A DNA stretch of 64,000 nucleotides from Thermoanaerobaculia bacterium (GCA_036375135.1 DASUSL010000091.1:10947-74946); one strand, 5' to 3'. Positions 1,920 to 60,785 are shown, counted from the first letter of the stretch. The notes: a model not told the origin generated them from the sequence alone. A program made the numbers and translations.

Positions 1920-2645
1920 CTACGCCGACGCGCCGCCGTCGATGGCGAGGACCTGGCCGGTGATTCCGCTGGCGTCGTCCGACAGCAGGAAGGCGATGGC
2001 CGCGGCCACCTCGTCGGCGCGGATGGCCCGGCGCATGGGGATCTGGCGGATCATCTCCCGCTTCACGTCCGGGTCGAGGGCCGCGATCATGTCCGTGTCG
2101 ACGAGGCCGGGCGCCACGCAGTTCACGCGGATGCCGCTGCGGGCCACTTCGCGGGCGAGGGAGCGGCTCATGGCGATCAGGGCCCCTTTCGCGGCGGAGT
2201 AGTTCGTCTGGCCGACCACCCCGTGCAGTCCCGACAGCGAGGCCACGTTCACGATCGCGCCGCGGCGCTGCTGCATCATCACCGGCAGCACGGCCTTGGT
2301 CATCGACCACGCGCCGCGCAGGTTCGTGTCCAGCACCTCGTCCCACTGCTCGGGGGACATGTTGTAGAGGAGGGCGTCCTGCCGCACGCCGGCGTTGTTG
2401 ACCAGCGCGTCGATCGTGCCGAATTTCGCGGCGACCTGTTCGGCCACGCGCTTGTTGGCGTCGTGGTCGCGCACGTCGGCCTCGAACGCCAGGGCGCGGC
2501 CTTTGGACTCCGCCTCGAACGCGAGGGCGGCATCTTTGGACTTCCCGTACGTGAACGCGATCGACCAGTCCTCGGCGAGCAGATGCATCGCCGTCACGCG
2601 GCCGATGCCGCGGGAGCCGCCGGTGATGAGTGCGACTCTGGTCAG
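1920..2645 (-). CDS. fabG: 3-oxoacyl-ACP reductase-like short-chain dehydrogenase (FabG family)
   Basis: [11 protein letters not shown] Rossmann motif, NNAG, YSAAK catalytic motif and a FabG-like C-terminus. The stop is TAG (rc of 1920-1922). No ATG/GTG/TTG lies between the acs stop and the Rossmann motif, so the start is uncertain (possibly CTG 2643-2645 overlapping the acs stop). Confidence 0.75.
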
Positions 2646-4594
2646 GATTCTTCCTCGTATTTCTCTTTCAGCGTGGCCACGACCGTGGGATCGGCGAGCG
2701 TGGTCACGTCGCCCAGGGCGCGGCCCTCGGCGATGTCGCGCAGGAGGCGGCGCATGATCTTGCCGGAGCGCGTCTTGGGGAGGTCGACCGAGATGATGAT
2801 CTTCTCGGGCCGCGCGATCGCGCCGATCTTTTCCGCGACGTGGGCCTTCAGCTCCTGCTCGAACTTCGCCGGATCGGCGAGGGCGGCCTCGCGCTCGCTC
2901 TCCTTGACGATCACGAACGCGGCGATGCCGGTGCCCTTGATCTCGTGCGCGATGCCGACCACCGCGGCCTCGGCGATCGAATGGTGGTCGACCAGCGCGG
3001 ACTCGACTTCCATGGTCCCGATGCGGTGTCCGGCGACGTTGATGACGTCGTCGACGCGGCCCAGGAGCCAGAAGTAGCCGTCTTCGTCGCGCTTCGCGCC
3101 GTCGCCCGTGAAGTAGACCCCGGGCCACTTCGACCAGTACTGCTTCACGAAGCGATCGGGGTCGCCCCAGATGCCGCGGAGCATCGACGGCCACGGGGAG
3201 GTCAGGGCGAGGTAGCCGCCGCCGACTTCCACTTCCTTGCCGCTCTGGTCCAGGATCTTCGCGTCGATGCCCGGGAACGGCTTCGTCGCGGAGCCGGGCT
3301 TGGTGGGGACCAGGCCGGGCAGCGGGGTGATGAGGATCGCGCCGGTCTCGGTTTGCCACCAGGTGTCCACGATCGGGCAGCGCTCGCCGCCGATGTTGCG
3401 GTGGTACCAGATCCACGCCTCGGGGTTGATCGGCTCGCCGACGCTGCCCAGCAGTCGCAGGGAGGACATGTCGTGCGACTTCGGCAGATCTTCGCCCCAC
3501 TTCATGAAGGCGCGGATGGCGGTGGGGGCGGTGTAGAAGATCGAGACCTTGTGCTTCTCGATGATCTCCCAGAAGCGGTCTTTCTTCGGCCAGTCGGGCG
3601 CGCCCTCGTAGATCATCACCGTGGCGCCGGCGGCCAGCGGGCCGTAGACGACGTACGAGTGGCCGGTGACCCAGCCGATGTCGGCGGTGCACCAATAGAT
3701 GTCGTCGTCCTTGAAGTCGAAGACCCACTTGCAGGTGGCCAGGCACTGGGTGAGATAGCCGCCCGTGGTGTGGACGATGCCCTTCGGCTTGCCGGTGCTG
3801 CCGGAGGTGTAGAGGACGTAGAGCATGTGCTCGGAGTCGACCCACTCCGGCTCGCACCAGGCGTCGGCGGAGGCCATGACGTCGTGGTACCAGACGTCGC
3901 GGCCGTCGTGCATGGTCACTTCATCCTCGGGGCGGCGGCGGACGACGACGACTTTCTCGATGGACGGGCACTCGGCGACCGCGGCGTCGGTGGTCTTCTT
4001 CAGCGGCACGACCGTGCCGCGGCGGTAGCCGCTCGTGGCGGTGATGCAGACCTTGGCCGTGCCGTCCTGGATGCGGTCTTTCAGGGCGTCGGCCGAGAAG
4101 CCGCCGAAGACGACCGAGTGGATGGCGCCGATGCGCGCGCAGGCGAGCATGGCCACCACGGCCTCGGGGATCAGGGGCATGTAGATCGCGACGCGATCGC
4201 CTTTGACGACGCCGAGGGACTTGAGGGCGTTGGCGAACTTGCAGACGTCGGCGTGGAGGGCGCTGTAGGAGATGCGGCGGATCTCGCCCGGCTCACCCTC
4301 CCAGATCAGGGCGATTTTGTCGCTGTTCTTCTCGAGATGGCGGTCCAGGCAGTTGAAGGACGCGTTGAGGGTGCCGCCGGTGAACCACTTCGCGTAGGGC
4401 GGCTCCCACTCCAGCACCTTGTCCCACTTCGTGTGCCAGTCGAGCTGCTCGGCCCACCCTGCCCAGAATTTCTCGCGGTCTTTGTCGGCCTTCGCCCAGA
4501 TCGCGGGATCCTTCACGTTCGCGTTCCGGCGGAACTCCTCGGATGGCGGAAACTCGCGGCTTTCCTGCAGGAGTGCGTCGATCTCTTGAGCCAT
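2642..4594 (-). CDS. acs: acetyl-coenzyme A synthetase (AMP-forming)
   Basis: 650 aa; N-terminal [24 protein letters not shown]-binding box [12 protein letters not shown]-terminal [11 protein letters not shown]; colinear with Acs. Confidence 0.95.
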
Positions 4595-4635: not shown

Positions 4636-4906
4636 TTTTCGAATCCTCGGCCTGATTCGTCGAATCTTCGCGAGGATTCCCATTCGCTTCGCGAGGATTC
4701 CCATTCGCTTCGCGAGGATTCCGTTTCGCTTCGCGAAGATTCCGTTTCGCTTCGCGAAGATTCGTTTTCGCTTATCGAAGATTCAGGTTCGCTTGTCGAG
4801 GATTCGTTTTCGCTTCGCGAAGATTCGTTTTCGCTGATCGAGGATTCGTTTTCGCTTGTCGAAGATTCGTTTTCGCTTCGATCGGATTTCGCGAAAATCG
4901 CGAAAA
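4636..4906. repeat. tandem array of about 12 degenerate 21-bp units (consensus TCGTTTTCGCTTCGCGAAGAT) in the acs upstream / purQ downstream intergenic region
   Basis: Direct head-to-tail repeats with no unique spacers. Each unit carries the palindrome TTCGCGAA or a near variant. The array ends in TTCGCGAAAATCGCGAAAACG. Confidence 0.9.
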
Positions 4907-4934: not shown

Positions 4935-5630
4935 TTACGCCCGTGCGAACGACGCCGCGATCGATTTGAAGACCAGCAGGCCGTCGGCATTTCCGAGGAT
5001 CGACTCCGCGCAGCGCTCCGGGTGGGGCATCAGGCCGAGGACGTTCCGGCCGCGGTTGCAGATGCCCGCGATGTGGCGGGCGGAGCCGTTCGGGTTGGCC
5101 TCGCTGGTCAGGCGCCCCTCCTCGTCGCAGTAGCGGAAGATCACCTGCCGGTTGCGCTCGAGCTCATCGAGCGTGGCCTCGTCGGCGAAGTAGTTCCCCT
5201 CGCCGTGGGCGATCGGCGTGCGGATGATCTGCCCGGCCGCCAGCTCGTTCGTGAACGGCGTATCCGTCTCCTCCGTGCGAATGAAGACGTCGCGGCCGAG
5301 GAAGCGGAGGTGCTGGTTGCGCATCAGCGCCCCCGGGAGCAGGCCGACTTCCGTCAGCACCTGGAACCCGTTGCAGATCCCGAGGACCAGGCCCCCCGCC
5401 TCGGCGTGCCGGCGGATCGGGTCCATGATCGGGGCGAACTTCGCCAGCGCGCCGGCCCGCAGGTAATCGCCGTACGCGAAGCCGCCGGGGATGATCACGC
5501 AATCCGCGCCCTTGAGGTCCGTGTCCTTGTGCCACAGCATCTCGGCGTCTTGTCCGAGGACGTCCTTCGTCACGTGAAGCGCGTCGTGATCGCAGTTCGA
5601 GCCGGGGAGGACGACGATGCCGAATTTCAT
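4935..5630 (-). CDS. purQ: phosphoribosylformylglycinamidine synthase subunit PurQ (glutaminase)
   Basis: 231 aa; [16 protein letters not shown]...GICNGFQ (Cys nucleophile) ...HPER; class-I GATase of the PurQ type. Confidence 0.95.
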
Positions 5631-5681
5631 GCCCCGAGTTTAACAAGTGAAACGGTTCGGCGGTCTCCTGCACTATCGGGT

Positions 5682-6815
5682 ATGCAGGTGGAAGAAGTCC
5701 GTTTCAACCACAACCCGAATTCGGCGGCGAACGACGCCATGACGATCGCCGTCAACGGCGCGTCCGGGGCTGTCGTTGCGCCGGAATGGCAGCGCAGTCC
5801 GGTCAAGCGCGACCCGTGCGCGTACGCCCTCGGCGCCCTCAGCGGAGCGGTGACGATCAAGGCGCGCTTCTCCGGCGGACCGTCGAACGGCGTCCGGCGG
5901 ATCCGCGCGGTCGACGCCAACCCGGTGCCTCCGCAGCAGGCCGGGTGCGCCGGCTTTCTGCTCTGGCTGCTCCAAGCCATCCTCCACGCCTTGTTCGGCC
6001 CCATCGGGGACGTTCTGCCGAAAAACGTGGCGTTCGATGCGGCCGGCAACTCGGGGCTGGAGACCTTCACGCTCAACGCCCCGTACCTCGGCGCGAACGG
6101 CTTCGTCACGAAGCGCAACACGGTGTGGAAGTGGCAGTACAAGTCGGGCGGCTCGTGGATCGACTTCGACACCACCGACCACACCATGTACGTCACCGTA
6201 GACCTGCCCACCGCGCCGTGGGTGCAGTCGGGGAACCCGTCGCAGCTCCCGTGGGCGATCGCGTTGGATCAGGCGTGCCTCTGGGCCATCGGGAAGAAGA
6301 CGAAGGACGACGTCGCCGCGGCCATCACGCTGGAAGTGAATCGCGTGCCGAACGTCTCCTACACGCCGATGACGATGTTCGGCTTCAGCGACTATCAGCT
6401 CACGTCGTACCTCACGCATCTCGCGGGCGGACCGTTCATCATGAACTGCACCGACGCCGCCGACGCCGTCACGACGCTCTCCAACCTCCTCGGCTGCAAC
6501 CTGGCCGAGGGGCGGTTCTTCAACATGGTGACGCGGAAGTTCCTGACCCTGTCGGGCAATCCCGCCGTTCCCGCGGACTGGGTATCGTGGGCGTGGGGCT
6601 ATCACGAGATCTGCTGGCTGAACGACTTCTCCAGCAACACCGTGTGGGACGGCTGCCTGCAACTGGACATGAGCGACGTGCCGAACGTGCACGTGGCAAA
6701 GCTGGTGGCGAAGATGCCGTTCAGCGTGCCGGACCCGAACGACTACAAGACGCGCCTGATCGCGAGCGGCCTCGGCACGCTCGAGAGTTTCGTCCGGCAC
6801 CGGGCCGTGGTTTAA
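5682..6815 (+). CDS. hypothetical protein (377 aa) with no recognisable family; first gene of a two-gene cassette inserted between purQ and purS
   Basis: ATG at 5682 is in frame with ORF 5022-6815, whose upstream part is antisense to purQ. Codon usage and GC resemble neighbouring genes. Seven Cys; C256-x51-H308-x14/20-D323/329 spacing. Confidence 0.6.
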   Translation: MQVEEVRFNHNPNSAANDAMTIAVNGASGAVVAPEWQRSPVKRDPCAYALGALSGAVTIKARFSGGPSNGVRRIRAVDANPVPPQQAGCAGFLLWLLQAILHALFGPIGDVLPKNVAFDAAGNSGLETFTLNAPYLGANGFVTKRNTVWKWQYKSGGSWIDFDTTDHTMYVTVDLPTAPWVQSGNPSQLPWAIALDQACLWAIGKKTKDDVAAAITLEVNRVPNVSYTPMTMFGFSDYQLTSYLTHLAGGPFIMNCTDAADAVTTLSNLLGCNLAEGRFFNMVTRKFLTLSGNPAVPADWVSWAWGYHEICWLNDFSSNTVWDGCLQLDMSDVPNVHVAKLVAKMPFSVPDPNDYKTRLIASGLGTLESFVRHRAVV

Positions 6816-6824
6816 GGAGAGACG

Positions 6825-7490
6825 ATGCAGCGGGAAATCACGATGAAAGCAATCGCTCCGGTGCTCGGCCATCCGCGCGAGCCGGGTCTGCTGCTGGTGG
6901 GCTTCAAGGCCTGGTCCGGGCCGCAGCCGGACGGCGCGTCGTCGCTGCGCGAGCAGCTCGCCCCGAACAGCTCCCGCGCGGTGTGGGACCTCGGCCGCGG
7001 CCGGATCGCGCTGACGGTCACCGAGCACGGCTCGGTGGAAGACGCGCTGAGCGCGCTCGCGGACGACATGGAAGCCAACCAGCTCGCGGAAGTGCCACGC
7101 GGCCCCGAGGACGTCGGGGAGATCAGCTTCGTGCATCCGCCCGAGGCGCCGCCGGCGCTGTTCTTCGTGCGCGGCAACCTGACGATGGGCGTATTCAGTT
7201 TCGGCCGCGAGGCCGTGGACGTCGAGCCGTTCGCGCGGCGCGTCGACACCGAGCTGCGGGCGCGTCCGGCGGATGCGCGTGAAGGCAACCTGGAGGTGCA
7301 GCGCGGCGAGCGCGGCATCGTCGTGAAGCCGCGCTACGCGGGAGACGGCTACGTGAAAGTGTTCGCGGCGGGGAAGGCGCGCAAGCACGGCGCCGAGATC
7401 GTCCTCGAAGGAGACGGCGACGCGGACCTCTATTACGTGGAGCCGGGCCGCGAGACTCAGCGGGCGACGGCGGGGCGCGGCAAGTTGTAA
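6825..7490 (+). CDS. hypothetical protein (221 aa), translationally linked to the upstream gene
   Basis: AGGAGA Shine-Dalgarno 8 nt upstream of ATG 6825; 9-nt gap after the 6815 stop; no family recognised. Confidence 0.55.
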   Translation: MQREITMKAIAPVLGHPREPGLLLVGFKAWSGPQPDGASSLREQLAPNSSRAVWDLGRGRIALTVTEHGSVEDALSALADDMEANQLAEVPRGPEDVGEISFVHPPEAPPALFFVRGNLTMGVFSFGREAVDVEPFARRVDTELRARPADAREGNLEVQRGERGIVVKPRYAGDGYVKVFAAGKARKHGAEIVLEGDGDADLYYVEPGRETQRATAGRGKL

Positions 7491-8738: not shown

Positions 8739-8855
8739 CGGGCGCGGATTCTATCTCCTCCGTCCCACGGAGGATAACGATGAACGATGAGCGATGAACC
8801 GCCTTCACCCCGGATGGGAGGCAGGGTTCATCGTTCATCGTTCATCGCTCATCGT
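8739..8855 (-). promoter_or_regulatory. structured purS leader: long imperfect hairpin built from GAACGAT/ATCGTTC heptamer repeats, plus a small hairpin that pairs the purS Shine-Dalgarno
   Basis: GATAACGATGAACGATGAGCGATGAACC ... GGTTCATCGTTCATCGTTCATCGCTCATCGTTC arms. On the purS sense strand, CCTCCGTGGGACGGAGG occludes GGAGG about 14 nt before the ATG. Confidence 0.5.
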
Positions 8856-9692
8856 TCAAAAGAGCGATAGCTGGCCCGGGAGGGGCTTGCGCTCGCGGCG
8901 GCGGGCGACGTCGAAGAGGCCTGTCGGCTCGAATTGTTTCGCAATGGAAAACTCGAGGCTCGCGCCCGTGCGGCGAAGCAGGCGCGTGCACATGTCGCGG
9001 ACGATCGACTCGTGGTTGTTCTTCTGCGAGAGGTGGATCATGCAGAGCGTCTTCAGGTCGGCGCCGAGGAGGCGCTGCACGGCGCTCACGGAATCGTCGT
9101 TCGACAGGTGGCCGAACCGCGACATGATCCGGCGCTTGAGCGACCACGGATAGCTGCCCATGCGGAGCATGTCCAGATCGTGGTTGGATTCGAAGAACAG
9201 GCCGTCGCATCCGCTGAGGTGGTCGAGCACTTCGCGGTTCACATAGCCGAGGTCGCTGGCGATGCCCACGCGGGTGCCGTCGCGGGACTCGATGACGAAG
9301 CAGGAGGGGTCCGCCGCGTCGTGGATCGTCTTGCGGGCGTGGACCTGCAGCTCGCCGATCCGGAACGTCGTGTCGTTCTGGAACACGACCATCTTCACGT
9401 CCGTCGTGTCGATGTTCGACGCGTCGAGCGTGCCTTTGGTCAGATAGATCGGCACCTCGTACTTGCGGGCGATCTTCTCCGCCCCGCGGATGTGATCGTA
9501 GTGCTCGTGGGTGACGACGATCGCCGAGAGCCGCTCGATGTCGCACCCCAGCGTGGCCAGGCGCTTCTTCGTGTCCCTGGGACCTATGCCGGCGTCCACG
9601 AGGATGGCTGTGCCGTCGCTCTCGAACCAGTAGGCATTCCCGGCCGAACCGGAGGAGAGAGGGGCCACGAGCATGGAGCGATGGTAGCTCAT
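8856..9692 (-). CDS. MBL-fold metallo-hydrolase
   Basis: THEHYDH (HxHxDH) motif and GSGSAGNAY N-terminus; about 270 aa. The start may be the internal ATG (MLVAPLSSGS). Confidence 0.8.
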   Translation of the reverse strand: MSYHRSMLVAPLSSGSAGNAYWFESDGTAILVDAGIGPRDTKKRLATLGCDIERLSAIVVTHEHYDHIRGAEKIARKYEVPIYLTKGTLDASNIDTTDVKMVVFQNDTTFRIGELQVHARKTIHDAADPSCFVIESRDGTRVGIASDLGYVNREVLDHLSGCDGLFFESNHDLDMLRMGSYPWSLKRRIMSRFGHLSNDDSVSAVQRLLGADLKTLCMIHLSQKNNHESIVRDMCTRLLRRTGASLEFSIAKQFEPTGLFDVARRRERKPLPGQLSLF

Positions 9693-16353: not shown

Positions 16354-17377
16354 ATGGCGAAGGCGCAGGGGAAGAAGGCGGTCGCCGCCGCCAGTGGTAA
16401 GAGTGCGGCAAAGAAGGTCGCGGCGAAGCTCAAGAGCGCGGCCAAAGCGGTGAAAAAAAAGGTCGCGCCGAAAAAGGCCGCCGCGCCCGCAGCGAAGCCA
16501 GCCGCGAAAAAGCCCGCGCCCAAAGTCGCGGCCAAGCCCGTCAAGCCTGCCAAGCCCGTAAAGCCCGCCCCGAAGCCGGCACCGAAGGCCGCGGCCAAAC
16601 CGGCGCCGAAGCCGGCACCGAAACCCGCGCCGAAAGCCAAGGCTCCCGCGAAACCGGTCGCGAAGGCGGCCAAGGCGGCGGTCAAGGCCGTGAAGAAAGT
16701 CGCGGCCAGGGTTGCGCCGAAGGCAGCCGAGAAGCCTGCTCTCAAGCCGAAAGCGGTCAAGCCGGCGCCGCCCACTCCCGCGCCGGTCGCGCCGAACGTT
16801 CCCGCCGTGCCGAAGCCGGCGCCCGCGCCGGAGCCGGAGAAGGCCAAGCGCGGCCGCCGCGCGCGTCCGCGCGTGATCTCCAGCGGAGCGCCCGCCGCGT
16901 CGTGGCTGTCGTCCGAGAAGCCGCGTCCGGCGTCGTTCATCGCCGCGCCCGCGCGTGCCGAGGCGCCGAGCGCCGTGGCCGCGCCGCCGGCGTCGTCGGA
17001 TCGACTCATCCGCGCCGAAGATCTGGACCATTCCGCCCTGCGCACCGTGCCGGTGCGCATCGACGTCGAGCAGGGGGCGGGACGCTTCTACGTCATCGCC
17101 AATCCGATGGAAGTCTCCGTGCGCGTCGGTGAAGGGATCGAGTGGGATTTCCGCTACATCGGCGGCGCCGACGTCAACGTCGACGAGATCGTCATCGAGC
17201 TCGAGAAGCCGTCGCCGTTCACGCAGAGCGTCTTCCGTACGCGCAAGCCGGGCGGCGCGCGTCCGCATCGCCAGCTCTCCGGCGCCGCGGTGGCGTCCGC
17301 GGCGGGCAAGCGCATTCAGTACACGGTGCGCGCGATGACGCCGTTCAAGACAGAGCTGGCGAACACGAAGGTCTGGG

Positions 17378-17394
<17 letters not shown>
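16354..17394 (+). CDS. histone H1-like Lys/Ala/Pro-rich protein fused to a C-terminal domain of unknown function
   Basis: N-terminal roughly 150 aa are AKKAAPKPAAKP repeats (AlgP/Hc1/BpH1-like), followed by about 180 aa of non-repetitive sequence ([28 protein letters not shown]...). Confidence 0.65.
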
Positions 17395-20690: not shown

Positions 20691-20764
20691 CAGTGCTGAG
20701 TGCTGGGTGCTGAGGGCTGAGACCACAGCGAAACTCAGCACCCGGCACTCAGCACTCAGCACTG
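20691..20764. repeat. hairpin of tandem heptamers (GTGCTGA)n / (TCAGCAC)n, occupying the carB divergent intergenic region
   Basis: GCAGTGCTGAGTGCTGGGTGCTGAGGGCTGAG ... CTCAGCACCCGGCACTCAGCACTCAGCACTG. It abuts ATG 20766 and lies 29 nt from the carB ATG. Confidence 0.85.
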
Positions 20765-21742: not shown

Positions 21743-21775
21743 TGGAAGGACAGGCAATCCTGCCTGTCCTCCACT
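21743..21775. repeat. palindromic element GTGGAAGGACAGGCAATCCTGCCTGTCCTCCAC (F1 family), intergenic copy
   Basis: A 14-bp stem around an ATCC loop. Five more copies fall inside coding regions (23765, 33010, 40312, 54036, 54078). Confidence 0.85.
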
Positions 21776-21785
21776 GGAAATGGCA

Positions 21786-23416: not shown

Positions 23417-23842
23417 TTGATTCCGCGGTTTCCGGTCATGTACACGCAGAAAAAGTCCATCGACAACACGCACGTCGTTCGCGAGCGGGATCGCCAGCGA
23501 AACCGTGAGCTGGTCGCCGTCCTCTCCTTCGGCGTCCCGATCGGCCTCTTTCTGCTCCTGTTCACCTGGCAGAACCTCGAGGTCATCCGCCTCGGCCGCG
23601 AAGCCACGAAGCTGCAGAAGGACCTCAAGAACGTCACCGCCGAGCACAAGGCCCTTCAGGCCGAGCTCGATCGCCTGACCTCCTTCGACGCCGTCGAGAA
23701 CAAAGCGAAAGACCTCGGCTTCCAGACCACGGAAGCAAAAAACATCATCATCATCGAACCGCCAGTGGACGACAGGCGATCCCGCCTGTCGGGACAGGCA
23801 GGATTGCCTGTCCTCCACAGTCCTGCGAACGGAGCGCGGTGA
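23417..23842 (+). CDS. ftsL: cell division protein FtsL
   Basis: Small bitopic protein: TM helix VAVLSFGVPIGLFLLLF, then a coiled coil; located between rsmH and ftsI. The C-terminus carries an in-frame F1 palindromic insertion (VDDRRSRLSGQAGLPVLHS). The start may be the ATG at 23438. Confidence 0.7.
   Translation: MIPRFPVMYTQKKSIDNTHVVRERDRQRNRELVAVLSFGVPIGLFLLLFTWQNLEVIRLGREATKLQKDLKNVTAEHKALQAELDRLTSFDAVENKAKDLGFQTTEAKNIIIIEPPVDDRRSRLSGQAGLPVLHSPANGAR
23765..23818. repeat. tandem double copy of the F1 palindromic element inside the ftsL 3' end
   Basis: GTGGACGACAGGCGATCCCGCCTGTC GGGACAGGCAGGATTGCCTGTCCTCCAC. Confidence 0.85.
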
Positions 23843-25779: not shown

Positions 25780-27233
25780 CGCTCACCGAACTGCTCAGAG
25801 ACGTCCCCGTGCGCGAAGTGCGTGGCGACCGCAACGTCGACGTGACGTCGGTGACGCCCGACTCGCGCCTCGTCACCGAGGGTGCGCTGTTCGTGGCCAT
25901 TCCGGGCACGGCCAAAGATGGCGCGGCCTTCATCCCGATGGCGCGTGAGAAAGGCGCGGCGGTGATCGTCGGACAGAGCGGCGACGTCGACGTGCTCGTC
26001 GACGACGCGCGCGCCGCCCTCGCACTCATCGCCGCCAACTTCTACGGCCGTCCGGCCGACAAGCTCTCGCTCGTCGGCGTGACCGGCACCTCCGGCAAGA
26101 CCACCACCACGCGCATGATCGAGTCGGTCTTCGACGCGGGCAGCGAGCCGGTCGGCCTCATCGGCACGATCGAGTACCGCGCCGGCGACGAGCGCCTCAA
26201 CGCCGACCGCACCACGCCCGACGCCGTCGTGCTGCAGGAGTGGTTCGCCAAGATGGTCGACGCCGGCGTGCGGCACGCGGTGATGGAAGTGTCGTCGCAC
26301 GCCCTCGCGCTCAAGCGCACGCACGGCGTGCACTTCGCGGCGGCGGTCTTCACCAACCTCTCCCGCGAGCACTTCGACTTTCACAAGGACTTCGAGGACT
26401 ACTTCGCCGCGAAGCGCATCCTCTTCGACCAGATCGACCGCACGCGGCAGACCGCGGTGGTGAACGTCGACGACCAGTACGGCCGGCGCCTGGCGAACGA
26501 GCTCGGCGCGAGCGCGATGACGTTCGGCCGCGAAGGCGACATCCGTCCGTCGGTCGACATTTCGGTGGACGGCATCCGCGGCACGATCCACACGCCGCAC
26601 GGCGACGTGCGCATGGAGTCGCCGCTCCTCGGGCAGCCGAATCTGTACAACTGGCTCGGCGCCATCGGCGCGGCGCTGGTCGTCGGCGTCCCGATCGCAC
26701 AGATCGAGGCGGGCATCCGCAACCTCGAGTCGGTGCGCGGCCGCTTCGAGCGCGTGAATGTGGGACGGGCTTCAGCCCGCCCGGAGCCGACGGTCATCGT
26801 CGACTACGCGCACAAGCCCGACGCCATCGAGAAGCTCCTGCACGCCGTGCGCGACATCGCCGGTGAGCGGAAGGTCTCCATCGTCTTCGGCTGCGGCGGC
26901 GATCGCGACCGCGGCAAGCGTCCGGAGATGGGGGCCATCGCCTCGCGGCTCGCGGACCGCGTGATCGTCACCAGCGACAACCCGCGCACCGAGGATCCGA
27001 AAGCGATCATCGAGGAGATCCTGAAAGGGATCGACGGCAGCAACACCATCGCCATCGCCGACCGGCGCGAGGCCATCGAGCGGACCATCGCCGAGGCGGG
27101 GGACGACGAGGTCATCGTCATCGCCGGCAAGGGTCACGAGACCTACCAGTACGTCGGAGACCGGGTCATCCACTTCGACGACAAAGAAGAAGCAGAATAC
27201 GCACTCAAAAAGCGTTACGAAAAACGATCTTGA
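25776..27233 (+). CDS. murE: UDP-N-acetylmuramoyl-L-alanyl-D-glutamate--2,6-diaminopimelate ligase
   Basis: Mur ligase domains with GTSGKTTT; the DNPR motif suggests meso-DAP specificity. Contains an in-frame F2 element (GRASARPEP) at 26763-26786. Confidence 0.9.
   Translation: MTLTELLRDVPVREVRGDRNVDVTSVTPDSRLVTEGALFVAIPGTAKDGAAFIPMAREKGAAVIVGQSGDVDVLVDDARAALALIAANFYGRPADKLSLVGVTGTSGKTTTTRMIESVFDAGSEPVGLIGTIEYRAGDERLNADRTTPDAVVLQEWFAKMVDAGVRHAVMEVSSHALALKRTHGVHFAAAVFTNLSREHFDFHKDFEDYFAAKRILFDQIDRTRQTAVVNVDDQYGRRLANELGASAMTFGREGDIRPSVDISVDGIRGTIHTPHGDVRMESPLLGQPNLYNWLGAIGAALVVGVPIAQIEAGIRNLESVRGRFERVNVGRASARPEPTVIVDYAHKPDAIEKLLHAVRDIAGERKVSIVFGCGGDRDRGKRPEMGAIASRLADRVIVTSDNPRTEDPKAIIEEILKGIDGSNTIAIADRREAIERTIAEAGDDEVIVIAGKGHETYQYVGDRVIHFDDKEEAEYALKKRYEKRS
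26763..26786. repeat. single F2 palindrome GACGGGCTTCAGCCCGCCCGG inside murE
   Basis: Same GGGCTTCAGCCC core as in the SDR and sulfotransferase copies. Confidence 0.7.
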
Positions 27234-29837: not shown

Positions 29838-29920
29838 GAGTCTCAGAGTCTCAAAGGCGCAAAGTCTCAAAGGAGGAGGCGACCTCTTTGCGACTTTGCG
29901 ACTCTGCGACTTTGAGACTT
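29838..29920. repeat. inverted repeat built from tandem roughly 10-mers (AGTCTCAAAG / CTTTGCGACT) with the RBS AGGAGGAGG in its loop, between mraY and murD
   Basis: GAGTCTCAGAGTCTCAAAGGCGCAAAGTCTCAAAGG aggaggcga CCTCTTTGCGACTTTGCGACTCTGCGACTTTGAGACT. Confidence 0.8.
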
Positions 29921-31266: not shown

Positions 31267-31351
31267 GAAGTGCTGAGTTCTGGGTGCTGCGTGCTGAGTC
31301 GCTTGCCGCCCACTGCCTCTGCTCAGCACTCAGCACTCAGCACTCAGCACT
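31267..31351. repeat. hairpin of tandem heptamers (GTGCTGA)n / (TCAGCAC)n between murD and ftsW
   Basis: GAAGTGCTGAGTTCTGGGTGCTGCGTGCTGAG ... CTCAGCACTCAGCACTCAGCACTCAGCACTTC, 22 nt before the ftsW ATG (GGAGG RBS between them). Confidence 0.85.
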
Positions 31352-32487: not shown

Positions 32488-33603
32488 ATGGGCGTGACGG
32501 GCGTGTTGATGGTTGCAGGCGGTGGGACGGGAGGCCACATCTATCCCGCCATCGCCATCGCACGGGAGTATCTCGCGCGCGATGCCGCGCGCAGCGTCGT
32601 CTTCGTCGGCACCGAGCGCGGTCTCGAAAAGACCATCGTGCCGAAGGCCGGCTTCCCCCTCGAGTTCATCGACGTCGGCGGCCTCAAAGGCAAAGGCGGC
32701 CTCGATCTCGTCAAGAACATTTTCCGGGTGCCGAAAGGCTTCATCCAGGCCTGGAAGCTGATCGGCAAGCACCGGCCGAGCGTGGTCCTCGGCGTCGGCG
32801 GCTACTCCTCGGGACCGGTGCTGCTCGCCGCCAGAATGCGCGGCGTTCCCACCATCGTCCACGAAGCGAACGCCTTCCCCGGTCTCGCCAACAGAAGCCT
32901 CGCCAAATTCGTCACCACCGTGGCCGTGGCCTTCGCGGAAGCCGGCCCGCGCATGAAGCGCAAAGACGCGGTGGTGACGGGCAACCCGATCCGAGCGGAG
33001 TTCTTCGAAGTGGGGGACAGGCGATCCCGCCTGTCCGGACAGGCAGGATCGCCTGTCCTCCACCGGCTGGTCCTCTTCGGCGGGTCGCAGGGCTCGCGCA
33101 TCCTCAACGACACCATGACCGGCGCGCTGCTGTTCCTGGCCCGTCACAAGGAGACGCTGGAGATCGTTCACCAGACCGGGCCGAACGAGCTGGAAAAAGT
33201 GCAGGCCGCGTATCGCACCTCCGCGTTCGCGGACACGGCGCGCGTCGTCCCGTATCTCGACCCCATCGTCGACGAGATCGCATCGGCCGACGTCGTGGTC
33301 TGCCGCGCCGGCGCCATGACCATCGGCGAGCTCGCGGCCATCGGGCGGGGCGCGATCCTCGTCCCCTTCGCCGCGGCCACGAACAACCACCAGGAATTGA
33401 ATGCGCGCGTCGTGGAGCGTGCCGGCGGGGCGGTGGTCATTACCGAAAAAGAGCTGTCGCCGGAGCGGCTGGCCGGCGCGATCAACGAAGTGCTGGCCGA
33501 TCCGCAGCGGGCCGCGCGCATGGGCGCGGCGGCGAAAACGCTGGCCATGCCTCAGGCAACGAAAACCATCGTCGATTTAATCGAGCGTATTCAGAGAATC
33601 TAA
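32488..33603 (+). CDS. murG: undecaprenyldiphospho-muramoylpentapeptide beta-N-acetylglucosaminyltransferase
   Basis: MVAGGGTGGHIYPAIAIA N-terminus and GT-B C-terminal domain with GAMTIGELAA. Contains an in-frame F1 double palindrome (DRRSRLSGQAGSPVLH) between the two domains. An alternative ATG lies at 32509. Confidence 0.9.
   Translation: MGVTGVLMVAGGGTGGHIYPAIAIAREYLARDAARSVVFVGTERGLEKTIVPKAGFPLEFIDVGGLKGKGGLDLVKNIFRVPKGFIQAWKLIGKHRPSVVLGVGGYSSGPVLLAARMRGVPTIVHEANAFPGLANRSLAKFVTTVAVAFAEAGPRMKRKDAVVTGNPIRAEFFEVGDRRSRLSGQAGSPVLHRLVLFGGSQGSRILNDTMTGALLFLARHKETLEIVHQTGPNELEKVQAAYRTSAFADTARVVPYLDPIVDEIASADVVVCRAGAMTIGELAAIGRGAILVPFAAATNNHQELNARVVERAGGAVVITEKELSPERLAGAINEVLADPQRAARMGAAAKTLAMPQATKTIVDLIERIQRI
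33010..33063. repeat. tandem double copy of the F1 palindromic element inside murG
   Basis: GTGGGGGACAGGCGATCCCGCCTGTCC GGACAGGCAGGATCGCCTGTCCTCCAC. Confidence 0.85.
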
Positions 33604-40034: not shown

Positions 40035-40783
40035 CGGTCGTTGAAGAGATTCACGACCTCCGCGTGCAGCCGCTCCGCGTGCGGGAAGCCGCGCTCGAGC
40101 GGCGCGTAGTGGCGGCTGGCGAAGAGTCCCGCGTCGAAGATCGCGCGCACCAGCTCCTCGGCGCGTGCGACGCGGATGTTGAAGCGCCACGTGCAGAGCT
40201 CCGGCGGCATTTGGACTTCCAGCGGGATGATTTCCCGATAGATGGCGTTGAGCCGCGCCTTCACGTCGTCAGCCCGGTCTCGCTCTTTGAGAACGCGCTC
40301 GAGATACTCCGGTGGAGGAGAGGCAATCCTGCCTGTCCCGGACAGGCTGTATTGCCTGTCCTCCATCATCTGCGCGAAGCCGCCCTCGCCGAGGTCGACA
40401 TACTTTGCGTAGCCCGTACTGAAGAGCGTCACATCCGCATGTGGCGAAAGATCCGTCCCTTCGACGTCGGGCGGACAGAGGCACCGATCGTCGACGATCC
40501 TGAAGTCCTCGCGCGCGAGCTCCGCAAAGAACGCGTCCGCGTCGTAGACCGCCCCGTACGTCCGCACGAAGACCACGCCCGCGCAATGCGGCGCACGAGA
40601 AAGAATCTGCTCGCGCGACGGCTCCAGCGTGACGGGGTCGACGTCGACCAGCTCGTACGCGCGCCCCGCGGCGCGCAGCGTGGCCGGCACGATGTCGCAG
40701 ACGTTGGCGGGGAGGAGCCACACCCCGTCGTGTGAGGCCACGACGTCGTGCAGGATGGCCGCGGCGCGGTGAGCGTAGATCAT
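39971..40783 (-). CDS. short DegT/DnrJ/EryC1/StrS-family (PLP-dependent aminotransferase-like) protein
   Basis: LPANVCDIVPATLRAAGRAYELVDVDPVTLEP...FRIVDDRCL...FSTGYAKYVDLGEGG resembles the DegT core including the Lys-containing motif. Contains an in-frame F1 double palindrome (EDRQYSLSGTGRIASP). Confidence 0.45.
   Translation of the reverse strand: MIYAHRAAAILHDVVASHDGVWLLPANVCDIVPATLRAAGRAYELVDVDPVTLEPSREQILSRAPHCAGVVFVRTYGAVYDADAFFAELAREDFRIVDDRCLCPPDVEGTDLSPHADVTLFSTGYAKYVDLGEGGFAQMMEDRQYSLSGTGRIASPPPEYLERVLKERDRADDVKARLNAIYREIIPLEVQMPPELCTWRFNIRVARAEELVRAIFDAGLFASRHYAPLERGFPHAERLHAEVVNLFNDRYFDEEKATRAAELVRRHVTR
40312..40366. repeat. tandem double copy of the F1 palindromic element inside the DegT-like gene
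   Basis: GTGGAGGAGAGGCAATCCTGCCTGTCC CGGACAGGCTGTATTGCCTGTCCTCCAT. Confidence 0.85.
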
Positions 40784-42015
40784 CGCAGCCGCTCGAGCCG
40801 CTGCTGTTCGCGGGCGATGTTGTGCGCATCGACCGCGTCCGCGGTCATGTCGTCGCGCGTCGTGTAAGGCTCTTCGAAAGAGCGGAGGATGTCCGGCGCT
40901 TCCTCTTCGCGGATGCCGGCGTCGTAGCCAAGGAGGCGCATCTCGGGGAAGCAGGTCGCTTCGACGAAGCGGATCACGTCCCGCGGCAGCACGTCGCGAT
41001 ACGCTCCCACCGACTCACGCGAGACGCCCCGCCGCTCGCCGTGCGACGAGTTGCCACCCCACGACATGCTCTCCCCAATGTGGGGCGTGGCTTCAGCCCG
41101 CCCCTCGGGCGGGGTGGGGGGCACCGGGATAGGCGGGACCGGGGTGGGCGGCACCGGGATAGGCGGGACCGGGGTGGGCGGCACCGGGCCGGGCGGCACC
41201 GGGGTGGGCGGCACCGGGATGGCCGGCACCGGGCCGGACGGCACCGGGCCGGCCGGCACCGGGGTGGGCGGGCTGAAGCCGCGCCCCACATTGGCCAGCA
41301 GTCGTTGCAGTTCGGCCGCGGGGGCTTGCGTGAGGTCTTCGTAGCGCAGCCAGTGAAAACCCGCGCGTCCTTCGAGCTCGAGCGCGAAGGCGACGCTCTT
41401 GCGCCACTGCCGGATGTTGAAGAGCGTCGGCTTCAGCGCGCCGCCGAACTCCGGGCCGCGGCCGTGATTGAGCGACGCCAGCACGTCGCGCGGATCGCGC
41501 ACGATCAGCGCGCACGACACACCCGCGTCGAGAAACGCGGGGAGAAACTCCTCGCACGTCGTCTCCTTCGCCCCGGCCACCGGCGCGTCGCGGCGCGCCA
41601 GCCCGCGCCAGAGCGCGGTCATCATCGGCACGAACGGAGCGTCGGTGAGTGCGGCGTCCGTCTCCTCGCGCGTGAAGCGCGTGTACTGGCCGGAGTAGGT
41701 CTCCATCCGCGCGAAGAGCGCACGCGCGCGCTCGCGGTCCAGCGTGTAGTCGCGCAGGAACGCCGTGAAGTCGGCGGGCGTGTAGCGCGTTTCGCCGAAG
41801 AGGTGGCCGAGCGGGTAGCGCGCGTCTTCTTCGCCGAGCGTGCGCAGAAAGTCGCGCTTCGCCTCGACGAACAGCAGCGGCGCGGGCTGGGAAAGGATCG
41901 TCAGTGAAGGCTGTGCGTCGAGCAGCTTTTCGAGAAGCGTCGTTCCCGAGCGCTGCATGCCGGTGATGAACATCCGGCGCGAATGATAGGGCATGGTAGG
42001 ATGCGCGGCCCTCAT
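40780..42015 (-). CDS. sulfotransferase-domain protein carrying an in-frame Pro-rich pentapeptide repeat insertion
   Basis: [17 protein letters not shown] is the PAPS 5'-phosphosulfate-binding loop; an RDPRD region follows. A 73-aa insertion (GRGFSPP[TPVPx]n...[13 protein letters not shown]) is encoded by the composite repeat 41075-41294. The start may be an internal ATG (MPYHS, rc 41992-41994). Confidence 0.75.
41075..41294. mobile_element. composite MITE-like element: about 30-bp terminal inverted repeats containing the F2 GGCTTCAGCCC core, flanking ten 15-bp tandem repeats (GGCACCGGGGTGGGC)
   Basis: Left CCAATGTGGGGCGTGGCTTCAGCCCGCCCC; right GGGCGGGCTGAAGCCGCGCCCCACATTGG (one mismatch to the rc of the left arm). 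The internal 150 bp is 10 x 15 bp, read as PxVPx pentapeptides on the minus strand. Confidence 0.8.
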
Positions 42016-53337: not shown

Positions 53338-54246
53338 ATGCACATCCTCGTCACCGACTCCGGCGTCGGCGGCCTTTCCGTGGTCGCGTACGCCGAGCGC
53401 TTCGTGCGCACGCACGGCTTCACCGAGCCGGTGCGGCTCACGTTCGCGAACGCCGCTCCGGCGAACGACTACGGCTACAACTCCATGCGCACGCGCGAGG
53501 AGAAGCTGGAGACCTTCGACCGCTTCCTGCGCAACGTGACGGAGCGCTTCGCGCCCGACTCGATTTACGTCGCCTGCAACACGCTCTCGGTGCTGCTGCC
53601 CGACACGCCGTACTTTGCTGATGCGCCGGTGCCGGTGAAAGGGATCGTGGAGACGGGCGTCGAGCTCCTGCTGCGCGAGCTGGCGCCGCGGAGTGTGGCG
53701 ATGATCTTCGGCACCCAGACCACCATCGACGCGGGAACGTATCCGCGGCTCCTCATCGAGCGCGGCATCGAGCCGTCGCGCATCGTCAGCCAGGCCTGTC
53801 CCGGGCTGGCGGACACGATCTCCGAAGACCGCGAGGGGACGCGAACGCGCGAGGAGATCCGCGGCTGGGTGAGCGCCGCGATCGCGAAGATGGAGCACGC
53901 CGGCGCGCCCGTCGTCGCCGCGCTGGCCTGCACGCACTACGGCTATCGCAAGGACGACTTCGCCGCGGCGTTCGAGGAAGCGGGGATCGACGCGCGCGTG
54001 GTGAACCCGAACGAGCGCGCCGCCGACGACCTGATGGAGGACAGGCAATCCTGCCTGTCCGGTTTTTCGCGAGATCGGGACAGGCAGGGTTGCCTGTCCT
54101 CCACCACTGACGTCGAGGTGCGCTTCGTCACGCGCTACGCGATCCCGGATGCGACGGTCGAGGCGCTCACGTTCTTCCTGAACGAGATCTCACCCCGGAC
54201 CGTCGCCGCGATGCGGCACTTCGAGCATCTGCCGGATCTGTTCTGA
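53338..54246 (+). CDS. murI: glutamate racemase-like (Asp/Glu/hydantoin racemase family)
   Basis: VTDSGVGGLSV and LACTHYGY catalytic-Cys motifs. Carries an in-frame 24-aa insertion from two inverted F1 palindromes (EDRQSCLSGFSRDRDRQGCLSSTT). Confidence 0.7.
   Translation: MHILVTDSGVGGLSVVAYAERFVRTHGFTEPVRLTFANAAPANDYGYNSMRTREEKLETFDRFLRNVTERFAPDSIYVACNTLSVLLPDTPYFADAPVPVKGIVETGVELLLRELAPRSVAMIFGTQTTIDAGTYPRLLIERGIEPSRIVSQACPGLADTISEDREGTRTREEIRGWVSAAIAKMEHAGAPVVAALACTHYGYRKDDFAAAFEEAGIDARVVNPNERAADDLMEDRQSCLSGFSRDRDRQGCLSSTTDVEVRFVTRYAIPDATVEALTFFLNEISPRTVAAMRHFEHLPDLF
54036..54104. repeat. two inverted F1 palindromic elements separated by 17 nt inside murI
   Basis: GGAGGACAGGCAATCCTGCCTGTCC ggtttttcgcgagatcg GGACAGGCAGGGTTGCCTGTCCTCCAC. 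Confidence 0.85.
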
Positions 54247-57382: not shown

Positions 57383-57444
57383 GGGTGCTGGGTGCTGAGT
57401 GCTGAGTGCTGAGAACTCAGCACCCAGCACTCAGCACTCAGCAC
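57383..57444. repeat. hairpin of tandem heptamers (GTGCTGA)n / (TCAGCAC)n between mreD and mrdA
   Basis: GGGTGCTGGGTGCTGAGTGCTGAGTGCTGAG aa CTCAGCACCCAGCACTCAGCACTCAGCAC, 12 nt upstream of the mrdA ATG. Confidence 0.85.
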
Positions 57445-57456
57445 TTCTCTTTCATG

Positions 57457-58902: not shown

Positions 58903-60117
58903 GTGATGACCGGTCAGTCGCTCCTCGCCGCCGCCGTTTTGCCGCTCTGTTTCGTGCACGGACAATGGTTCGACGGCACGAAGTTCACCGGGAAGAGTTT
59001 CTGCGCGGAAGGTGGGGTGCTCGTCCAGCGCCAGCCGCGGGCAGGCGACCGGACCATCGATCTCGGCGGCAAATTCGTGGTGCCGCCGTTCGGCGAAGCG
59101 CACAACCATAACGTCGACAGCGGCGAGCGGCTGCAGAGCCGCATCTCCGCCTACCTCGGCGCGGGAGTCTACTACGTCAAGAATCCCAACAATCTGCCGC
59201 GCACGGTGCCGCGCGACCGCGTCAATCAGCCTCGCAGCATCGACGCGGTCTTCGCGCAGGCCAGCCTGACCGGACCGGGCGGACATCCGCTCGACGTGAT
59301 GAAACGCCTCATCGACCGCGGCGTCGCGAAGCCGGAGGACGCCGACGGAGGCTTCTACTTCGTCGTCCGCGACGCGCGCGAGCTCGCCGGGCGCTGGCCC
59401 GCCGTCCTGGCGAACCGCCCCGACTTCATCAAGACCTATCTCCTCTACTCCGAGGATTACGCACGGCGGAAGGACGATCCGGCGAAAGCGGGATGGAACG
59501 GACTCGATCCGGCGCTGCTGCCGGAGATCGTCGCCCGCGCCCGCGCCGCCGGCCTTTCCGTGACGACGCACGTGGAAACGGCCGCGGACTTTCGCGCCGC
59601 CGTCGCCGCGGGCGTCGACGAGATCAATCACCTGCCCGGCTTTCGTCCGGAGAAAGAGGACTTCTCGATCTTCACTTCCGGCCGCGCGCGGCTGACCGAT
59701 GCCGACGCGCGCGCCGCGGCGCGGAAGGGGATCGTGGTCGTGACCACGGTCGGGGAGTCGATCGTCATGGCTCGCGAGCAGAAGCAGGCGGCGTGGCTGG
59801 AGACGATCGAGCACAACCTCCGCACGCTGCACCGCAACGGCGTCCGTCTCGCCATCGGCAGCGACGACTACGGCCGCGGCGTCGTCCCCGAGGCGATGGC
59901 GCTGGCCTCCCTCGGCATCTTCTCGAACGCCGAGCTGCTGCGCATGTGGACCGAGCACACGGCCGCGGCCATCTTCCCGAAACGGAAGATCGGCCGGCTG
60001 CGCCCCGGCTACGAGGCCAGCTTCCTCGTGCTCGGCGCCAACCCGCTCCGTTCCTTCGCCGCCGTCCGCACGATCGAGCTGCGTGTGAAGGAGGGGGAGA
60101 TCCTCAGCGCGAAGTAG
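58903..60117 (+). CDS. amidohydrolase-family metal-dependent hydrolase, secreted
   Basis: Signal peptide, FGEAHNHNV (HxH metal motif), later HVE and GSDD-type motifs; 404 aa. Confidence 0.7.
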   Translation: MMTGQSLLAAAVLPLCFVHGQWFDGTKFTGKSFCAEGGVLVQRQPRAGDRTIDLGGKFVVPPFGEAHNHNVDSGERLQSRISAYLGAGVYYVKNPNNLPRTVPRDRVNQPRSIDAVFAQASLTGPGGHPLDVMKRLIDRGVAKPEDADGGFYFVVRDARELAGRWPAVLANRPDFIKTYLLYSEDYARRKDDPAKAGWNGLDPALLPEIVARARAAGLSVTTHVETAADFRAAVAAGVDEINHLPGFRPEKEDFSIFTSGRARLTDADARAAARKGIVVVTTVGESIVMAREQKQAAWLETIEHNLRTLHRNGVRLAIGSDDYGRGVVPEAMALASLGIFSNAELLRMWTEHTAAAIFPKRKIGRLRPGYEASFLVLGANPLRSFAAVRTIELRVKEGEILSAK

Positions 60118-60170
60118 AGGCAAGAGGAAAGAGGAAAGAGGGAAGAGGAAAGCGCCGCGCGCTGAGGATC
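60099..60170. repeat. hairpin GATCCTCAGCGCG / CGCGCTGAGGATC enclosing a purine-only (GAGGAAA)n tract, over the amidohydrolase stop
   Basis: Purine run GAGGCAAGAGGAAAGAGGAAAGAGGGAAGAGGAAAGCG at 60117-60154. Its complement-type pyrimidine run recurs at 60745-60785. Confidence 0.75.
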
Positions 60171-60710: not shown

Positions 60711-60785
60711 GAAGAGAAAAGAGAAAAGCGCACCCGACCTCCGGGCCTCTTTCCTCTTTTCTCCTTCCTCTTTCCTCCGCTTTCG
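60711..60785. repeat. purine-run / pyrimidine-run hairpin abutting the mreB stop; inverted counterpart of the 60117-60154 purine tract
   Basis: GAAGAGAAAAGAGAAAAGCG ... CCTCTTTCCTCTTTTCTCCTTCCTCTTTCCTCCGCTTTCG. With the 60117 tract it brackets about 600 bp containing the DUF6883 remnant and the DUF4926 gene. Confidence 0.7.

Follow-up and report, generated by a model that had tools for sequence, protein, structure and literature searches.

The 220-bp unit at positions 41075-41294 of the DNA analyzed here, a stretch of 64,000 nucleotides from a Thermoanaerobaculia bacterium (the window), appears from its sequence to have been inserted secondarily, in frame, into a sulfotransferase gene that is otherwise ordinary. 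The same sequence evidence identifies it as a head-to-head dimer of REPs, REPIN-like in organization, belonging to a newly seen Thermoanaerobaculia family. We consider it likely, and the best explanation of the unit, that a REPIN-like pair of GTAG-type REPs, from a family abundant in Thermoanaerobaculia, was inserted in frame and that the array of 15-bp tandem repeats between its arms was amplified afterwards. Elements of this kind are known; an architecture that includes a coding minisatellite born from a junction has no description in the literature searched.

The host ORF encodes 411 residues, while the NCBI start is placed at the second ATG (41994), giving the 404-aa sulfotransferase HEX6083970.1 of a Thermoanaerobaculia MAG. 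Exact look-ups of both the 411-aa and the 404-aa protein gave no match in the contig index, the 404-aa form being retrieved from NCBI by a cluster look-up. Two Pfam sulfotransferase domains are recognized, Sulfotransfer_3 (PF13469, E 4e-13) and Sulfotransfer_1 (PF00685, E 5e-8). Together with the 5'-PSB and 3'-PB motifs (QRSGTT and RDPRD..S), they point to membership in the PAPS sulfotransferases. The PAPS-binding motifs, QRSGTT and RDPRDVLAS, are situated upstream of the insert, are intact and are invariant in the alignment of sulfotransferase homologues (alignment A1). A bifunctional ATP sulfurylase/APS kinase gene, assigned by Pfam, adjoins the sulfotransferase gene in divergent orientation. 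The gene and the unit that it contains are composed as follows.

40780 to 42015, minus strand: host sulfotransferase gene, 411 aa (ORF list)
41075 to 41103, plus strand: REP arm 1, the 3' arm on the gene strand, encoding 10 residues (inverted-repeat search)
41077 to 41103, plus strand: family-conserved block of arm 1, AATGTG+GGGCGTGGCTTCAGCCCGCCC, with a sharp outer edge in the family logo
41104 to 41115, plus strand: 12-nt spacer CTCGGGCGGGGT (gene strand ACCCCGCCCGAG, encoding TPPE), the same as the complete spacer of the related locus L001
41116 to 41265, minus strand: ten 15-bp tandem units, gene-strand consensus ACCCCGGTGCCGCCC (Tandem Repeats Finder and unit dissection)
41266 to 41294, plus strand: REP arm 2, the 5' arm on the gene strand, encoding 10 residues, with the family block at 41266-41292

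The two arms, of 29 nt each, are 97% complementary with one mismatch and are separated by 162 nt. An arm search allowing up to 3 mismatches returned just these two copies in the 64-kb window, with 0 expected from 100 shuffles, and a chance origin of the inverted repeat was ruled out by this shuffling. For positions 41110-41271, Tandem Repeats Finder gave a period of 15, 10.8 copies, 82% matches and a score of 191, and a 30-nt period scored higher (226). Exact dissection of the inter-arm stretch resolved it into the 12-nt spacer and a GGCACCGGGGTGGGC array of 10 x 15 nt. On the gene strand the unit is translated throughout, as 10 residues-(xPVPx)10-14 residues, which corresponds to residues 241-314 of the 411-aa ORF; the array peptide itself reads (T/G/I)-P-V-P-(P/A/S) ten times (residues 251-300). 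The first-pass annotation, which had described inverted repeats of about 30 bp flanking ten 15-bp tandem repeats, the whole being translated in frame within a sulfotransferase, is borne out on these points. Its term "pentapeptide repeat" suits the 5-residue proline-rich unit xPVPx, but no pentapeptide-repeat domain (Pfam PF00805, A(D/N)LXX) is present. Folding z-scores were -5.3 for the window unit and -11.4 for the L001 unit. Rfam, used at gathering thresholds, gave no match in the window.

The nature of the arms became apparent from a family scan with the 21-mer core GGGCGYGGCTTCAGCCCGCCC, which used one genome per species and returned at least 113 loci, almost all from five Thermoanaerobaculia/Acidobacteriota MAGs and mostly from three of them. 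Among the loci listed, these related genomes hold at least 210 arms, so the flanking inverted repeats do occur elsewhere. The listed arms form 77 close pairs, 71 of them convergent with the tag outside, i.e. head-to-head, and the pair form is AAYGTA-GGGCGYGGCTTCAGCCCGCCC-[spacer]-GGGCGGGCTGAAGCCRCGCCC-TACRTT. In the listed loci, pair spacers are either 6-13 nt or 26-51 nt long, many of them self-complementary. The conserved block spans 27 nt with a sharp outer boundary in the family logo, and the sequence of this REP family (family 1) written in full is AAYGTRGGGCGYGGCTTCAGCCCGCCC. The tag is GTAG in 197 of the 208 arms of related genomes among the loci listed. GTGG replaces it in all three family-1 arms of the window, i.e. 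the two described here and a solo copy in murE, and in none of the 208 listed arms of other genomes; the single arm seen in a conspecific scaffold (L139) also carries GTGG. These three arms are all that the 64 kb readable of the window's own genome contain. A GTGG-type variant (GTRG) has been reported for Opitutus terrae GTAG-20 (PMC3733652).

A lone arm folds (-8.3 kcal/mol) into a TTCA loop closed by an 8-bp stem that has one bulge. Furthermore, the Y position of the paired heads covaries, with 62 matched pairs versus 6 mixed ones among the loci listed. No target-site duplication was detected, identical direct flanks of at least 3 nt being found in 0 of 69 pairs. Since the arms match the published definition of GTAG-tagged REPs and of their head-to-head dimers, "MITE" is the wrong label for the unit. 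Of the MITE-like mobile element initially proposed, what stands is that its arms belong to a dispersed multi-copy family; they are GTAG stem-loops, and the missing duplications do not fit a classical MITE. Neither tblastn with an approximate E. coli YafM query nor an HUH/Y-motif scan, over about 0.98 Mb of loci together with the window, revealed a gene for a REP-associated tyrosine transposase (RAYT). The sole HUH...Y..NP motif match, in L087, looks by eye like an unrelated protein.

Two side observations concern the distribution and structure of the family. The identical REP core after GTA is present as solo copies in another phylum, in three loci from Opitutaceae/Verrucomicrobia MAGs (L011, L053, L075). 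Opitutus terrae, which belongs to the same phylum as these hosts, has the most intragenic GTAG REPs (PMC3733652). It is possible that the REP systems of Opitutaceae/Verrucomicrobia and Thermoanaerobaculia are related by shared ancestry or horizontal transfer. In addition, a REP pair at L105 2193-2411 encloses a 177-nt non-tandem spacer holding another palindrome, GCCGGCTTCCAGCCGGC / GCCGGCTGGGAAGCCGGC, possibly from a different repeat family that inserted there.

Comparison with homologues places the unit in an evolutionary frame. A protein search collected 385 sulfotransferase homologues. In alignment A1, five of them (P0002-P0006), 76-84% identical to the window protein, have a short loop, RLGFDGEVRLAETW, without the element, and more distant homologues show a variable loop of about 20 residues at the insert position. 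No proline-rich tract occurs at this position among the homologues of alignment A1, and a native proline-rich linker was rejected on this alignment. Because the closest homologues lack the unit and none has a native proline-rich linker, the insertion is read as derived, in agreement with the initial proposal. Its site corresponds to the most length-variable surface loop of the PAPS-type sulfotransferase. The gene order is kept in all compared loci, with the dcw cell-division cluster followed by two unnamed genes, the sulfotransferase gene and a PAPS-synthesis gene.

Among the homologues compared, the palindrome is common to the window and P0001 (locus L001) only. L001 carries a perfect 26-nt palindrome around a 12-nt loop, i.e. 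the pair of the window and its 12-nt spacer, but no array. In the two flanking parts of the gene, the window shares 92% and 88% nucleotide identity with L001, versus 90% and 80% with L002, and the sulfotransferase genes of the window and L001 are mutual closest relatives. The outer flanks of the arms differ between the two, QRLL being present in the window only. The heads differ as well, ATGTG/CACAT in the window versus ACGTA/TACGT in L001, and the T versus C change is mirrored in the other arm. The GTGG tags and this mirrored change could represent a compensated change within the hairpin, a genome-specific REP variant or an independent insertion.

The origin of the array can be traced by comparing the two alleles. 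Along the gene strand, the order in the window is arm, 10 x 15 nt, ACCCCGCCCGAG, arm, against arm, ACCCCGCCCGAG, arm in L001. The ancestral 12-nt spacer, identical to that of L001, is thus still whole next to the array. In the consensus unit, ACCCCG-GTG-CCGCCC, the first six bases of the spacer come at the start and the last six of the arm at the end, so that each unit consists of 12 nt of the spacer/arm junction plus GTG, a trinucleotide without visible source. Thanks to this composition, successive units recreate the CCGCCC/ACCCCG junction of the array-less allele. Any two units differ at 0-5 positions, mostly in the first codon (T/G/I), the last codon (P/A/S) and three synonymous sites. A recent two-unit duplication is suggested by the near identity of units 7-8 and units 9-10 (30-nt blocks). 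As the units repeat the local spacer/arm junction and the L001 element is array-less, we infer that the array arose in place after insertion. Slipped-strand length variation of the 15-bp array is plausible.

From these elements, the following course of events can be proposed. A REP pair would have been inserted in frame in the surface loop of the sulfotransferase, a stage that would survive, array-less, in L001. After this insertion, a 15-nt segment across the spacer/arm junction would have been duplicated, and replication slippage or unequal exchange beside the hairpin-forming arms could then have increased it to ten copies. The outcome would be a 50-residue (x-P-V-P-x)10 tract in an enzyme loop. 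By analogy with other GTAG REPs, the family was probably mobilized by a RAYT.

At the protein level, AlphaFold2 with alignment A1 predicted residues 250-330 as coil with pLDDT <50, and the remaining fold mostly exceeded 90. The modeled disordered loop sits between the helix 232-243 and the C-terminal part. The invariant residues that follow the insert in alignment A1 (W319, N322, S323, S324) are intact. Given the predicted disorder and the intact PAPS-binding motifs and later invariant residues, the insert is most likely a tolerated disordered loop. Since this loop would lie outside the catalytic core, the 74-residue insert was probably tolerated as neutral or nearly so.

The sulfotransferase is not the only gene of the window with REP-derived coding sequence. 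At least five in-frame REP-derived segments are found in the 64 kb, murE and murG included, and a second REP family contributes to them.

26757 to 26782, plus strand: solo family-1 REP AATGTGGGACGGGCTTCAGCCCGCCC, in frame in murE, encoding NVGRASARP (sequence match)
21746 to 21780: solo copy of the second REP family
23762 to 23818: head-to-head pair of the second REP family, GTGG-tagged, unit GTGGAGGACAGGCRATCCYGCCTGTCC; in frame at the C-terminus of a 141-aa FtsL-like ORF
33009 to 33066: head-to-head pair of the second family, in frame in murG (VGDRRSRLSGQAGSPVLH)
40309 to 40372: head-to-head pair of the second family, in frame in a 270-aa gene next to the sulfotransferase gene (MMEDRQYSLSGTGRIASPPP)
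54032 to 54110: head-to-head pair of the second family

At the insert point of MurE, about 110 of 120 homologues read RV-GDAK-PTV and the window protein reads RV-NVGRASARPE-PTV. Within these 120 homologues, a ...GRASAR/GQASAR... insert is limited to the window protein and four others (P0122, P0125, P0126, P0140); a different REP-like peptide, AQAFQPAS, occupies the same loop in P0233. For the 270-aa neighbor gene, L001 has half of the REP segment only, and L002 and L006 have none.

In-frame residence was also assessed in the other genomes by a heuristic test, which called a pair intragenic if a stop-free frame ran through the element with at least 50 codons on each side, GC3 >0.75 and GC1 > GC2. 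Among the loci listed, 15-16 of 62 assessable pairs were intragenic by this heuristic estimate (about 24%). The other 46-47 had no spanning coding-like ORF, indicating that the pairs are mostly extragenic. The "intragenic" call at L076 was an antisense artefact (GC1 0.94, translation rich in R, D and H), and that at L097 is ambiguous between strands. The insert is flanked by Pfam domains in L023 (a zinc-type dehydrogenase), L027 (a glycogen-debranching-type enzyme) and L102 (a multidomain PTS protein). In an AcrB-family transporter (L062), ACR_tran matches in three stretches along the ORF; ArsA_ATPase matches occur at L064, and TPP_enzyme_N lies upstream of the insert at L042. Intragenic copies encode recurrent REP peptides, e.g. 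GRAEATPY. A separate observation was made in the L062 transporter gene, where three tandem copies of one REP arm (6808-6889; 27 nt x 3.0, 98% matches) lie in frame and encode GGLKPRPTS three times.

It is possible, and we suggest it only tentatively, that REP pairs in this Thermoanaerobaculia lineage are dense in coding sequence, recalling the Rickettsia palindromic elements, and that their hairpin pairs nucleate new coding minisatellites. If true, this would constitute a general route from selfish palindromes to proline-rich or other disordered enzyme loops, of which the sulfotransferase array and the triplicated arm of the AcrB-family gene would be two instances.

Several other repeats were noticed in the window. 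Inverted tandem-heptamer hairpins, e.g. (AGTGCTG)4...(CAGCACT)4, occupy short intergenic gaps at 20692-20763, 31269-31351 and 57385-57445. The same hairpin type is found at 8776-8858, at 29839-29920 and at 60116-60152 with 60746-60777, and the gaps taken together include some inside the dcw cluster; the sites vary, and other 7-8-nt units are used elsewhere. At 4666-4880, two divergent genes (2642-4594, minus; 5022-6815, plus) are separated by a gap with about 10 copies of a 21-bp unit, CTTCGCGAGGATTCGTTTTCG, which look like an iteron or binding-site array. Finally, tandem repeats of 9, 12, 18 and 24 bp (AAGCCCGCGCCG and similar) at 16531-16634 form a coding low-complexity Lys/Pro/Ala tract in a 346-aa ORF (16354-17394).

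Other explanations of the unit were weighed against in-frame insertion followed by local amplification. The array is bounded exactly by two arms from a mobile-looking family, and it had initially been proposed that a composite MITE delivers the 15-bp array as cargo, the whole being transposed as one unit with a ready-made proline-rich module. This is very improbable and disfavoured by the comparisons. In L001 the orthologous copy shares the spacer but not the array, the units are built from local junction sequence, and target-site duplications are lacking in the family. Moreover, no tandem array is present in the 71 listed convergent pairs of other genomes. A scan of JGI metagenome contigs for the arm-array junction revealed no second copy either, all 16 matches being unrelated coding sequence. 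Nothing in the metagenomes scanned matched the lineage-specific right flank ATTGGGGAGAGCATGTCGTGGGG (0 matches), and a protein search with the 77-residue insert peptide gave 11 candidates, none scoring, probably owing to low complexity and database size. Even less credible is that the palindrome was generated on the spot, through template switching or fold-back copying of the native loop. Complementarity in L001 indeed runs past the arms into native-looking codons (GGAGCTG...CAGCTCC), and where the heads of the window and L001 differ, both arms carry compensating changes. However, the same 27-nt arm recurs at least 210 times in unrelated contexts of several genomes, with a sharp outer boundary, and these dispersed copies refute fold-back as the origin of the arms. 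Intra-hairpin correction may still act in maintenance, explaining compensated head changes after insertion. More weight must be given to the idea that the lineages of the window and of L001 gained REP pairs independently in the same permissive loop, the array still being lineage-specific. Consistent with it are the different heads, the GTGG tag of all three family-1 arms of the window, the different sequence just outside the arms with QRLL in the window only, and the MurE loop, where another lineage possibly acquired a different REP-like insert (P0233). Nevertheless, both copies occupy one loop of the same gene, in the same orientation and reading frame and with an identical 12-nt spacer, the two genes are mutual closest relatives, and their neighbor gene has a REP-derived segment in common. 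We regard independent gain as rather unlikely, though possible.

The remaining alternatives concern the array itself. Its copy number rests on one short-read MAG assembly, of the k141 MEGAHIT type as record names suggest, and the array or its length could be an assembly artefact. Assemblies break at the REP arm. Indeed, the conspecific ENA scaffold L139 is 99% identical to window positions 41099-40296 over 804 nt but, in its positions 1-125, gives way to unrelated coding sequence precisely where the arm ends on its inner side. This switch is likely a repeat-induced chimera, possibly a real rearrangement, and its position indicates that assemblers struggle at the arm. On the other hand, only units 7-8 and 9-10 are near-identical; since the units otherwise differ from each other, most of the array should be resolvable with 141-mers, and the reading frame and codon pattern are kept throughout. 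An artefact thus seems quite improbable. Somewhat less so, yet still unlikely, is that selection kept the array for a function, as a flexible arm or spacer, e.g. an acceptor-site lid or an interaction tract. The P-V-P core is invariant in 10 of 10 units, with variation confined to the first and last codons and the three synonymous sites, the ORF is intact, and its context beside the ATP sulfurylase/APS kinase gene is conserved. However, an invariant core is equally expected from recent amplification, the array is found in no other allele or homologue, and the model predicts disorder.

If the unit is indeed a REP pair whose array was amplified after insertion, selfish palindromic DNA could add protein sequence in two steps, each of them visible in surviving sequence. 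For annotation, RRAWLQPA and like peptides in Thermoanaerobaculia proteins would be better regarded as encoded by REPs, and REP sites are places where contig breaks and chimeras can be expected.

Bacterial MITEs leave target-site duplications and are derived from DDE-type insertion sequences. The unit resembles MITEs such as Correia/NEMIS, RUP, ERIC and Nezha in being short, non-autonomous and bounded by inverted repeats, and some of these are also found in frame in genes. In contrast, the window family shows no target-site duplication (0/69 pairs), and its "terminal inverted repeats" are in fact hairpins. Rickettsia palindromic elements (Ogata 2000, via PMC3733652 and PMC10969869), the classic analogue of intragenic REPs, are likewise selfish palindromes residing in frame in many unrelated genes, including housekeeping ones, and tolerated at surface regions of the proteins. 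They differ in length (about 100-150 bp), in their sequence families (the short ones being CGTC-tagged) and in their host, an intracellular alphaproteobacterium; an internal tandem array is not described for them in the texts consulted. Since sequence, tag and host phylum differ, the unit is not a member of the RPE families, and the resemblance consists in in-frame residence alone. Tandem clusters of REP units within ORFs, encoding 43-82 residues, have been described in Thauera and R. conorii (PMC3733652). There, as in the window, an intragenic REP region was enlarged by local reiteration, and the L062 triplication is of the same type. In the window, unlike in these clusters, the reiterated element is a 15-nt fragment of the spacer/arm junction, not a REP, and yields a proline-rich low-complexity tract.

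The closest known relatives are the GTAG-tagged REPs and their head-to-head dimers, or REPINs (Nunvar 2010, PMC2817692; Bertels & Rainey 2011, PMC3116915; Di Nocera 2013, PMC3733652). The window family departs from them in its host, a member of the Thermoanaerobaculia (Acidobacteriota), in the GTGG tag of the window copies, in the share of intragenic pairs (about 24%) and in the coding minisatellite inside one pair; no RAYT was seen in the loci and window with the approximate YafM query and motif scan. It shares with them the GTAG tag, a G+C-rich stem-loop, a conserved unit of 21-27 nt and hundreds of copies. In both, moreover, most copies form inverted pairs that carry their tags on the outside, the spacers vary and are in many cases self-complementary, target-site duplications are lacking and a minority of copies lies in ORFs. 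For instance, the RAYT-associated REP of Haemophilus influenzae, GTAGGGTGGGCTTCAGCCCACC (PMC2817692), has an architecture like that of the window arms. Intragenic REP dimers encoding 20-30 residues are known and are most abundant in Opitutus terrae (PMC3733652, 2013), and intragenic GTAG REPs encode peptides such as VGRASAR or GRGFS (supplement of PMC3733652). The literature searched holds no description of REP families in Thermoanaerobaculia, and the present observations would extend to the Acidobacteriota what is known of GTAG-type REPs and REPINs, their frequent in-frame residence in housekeeping genes included.
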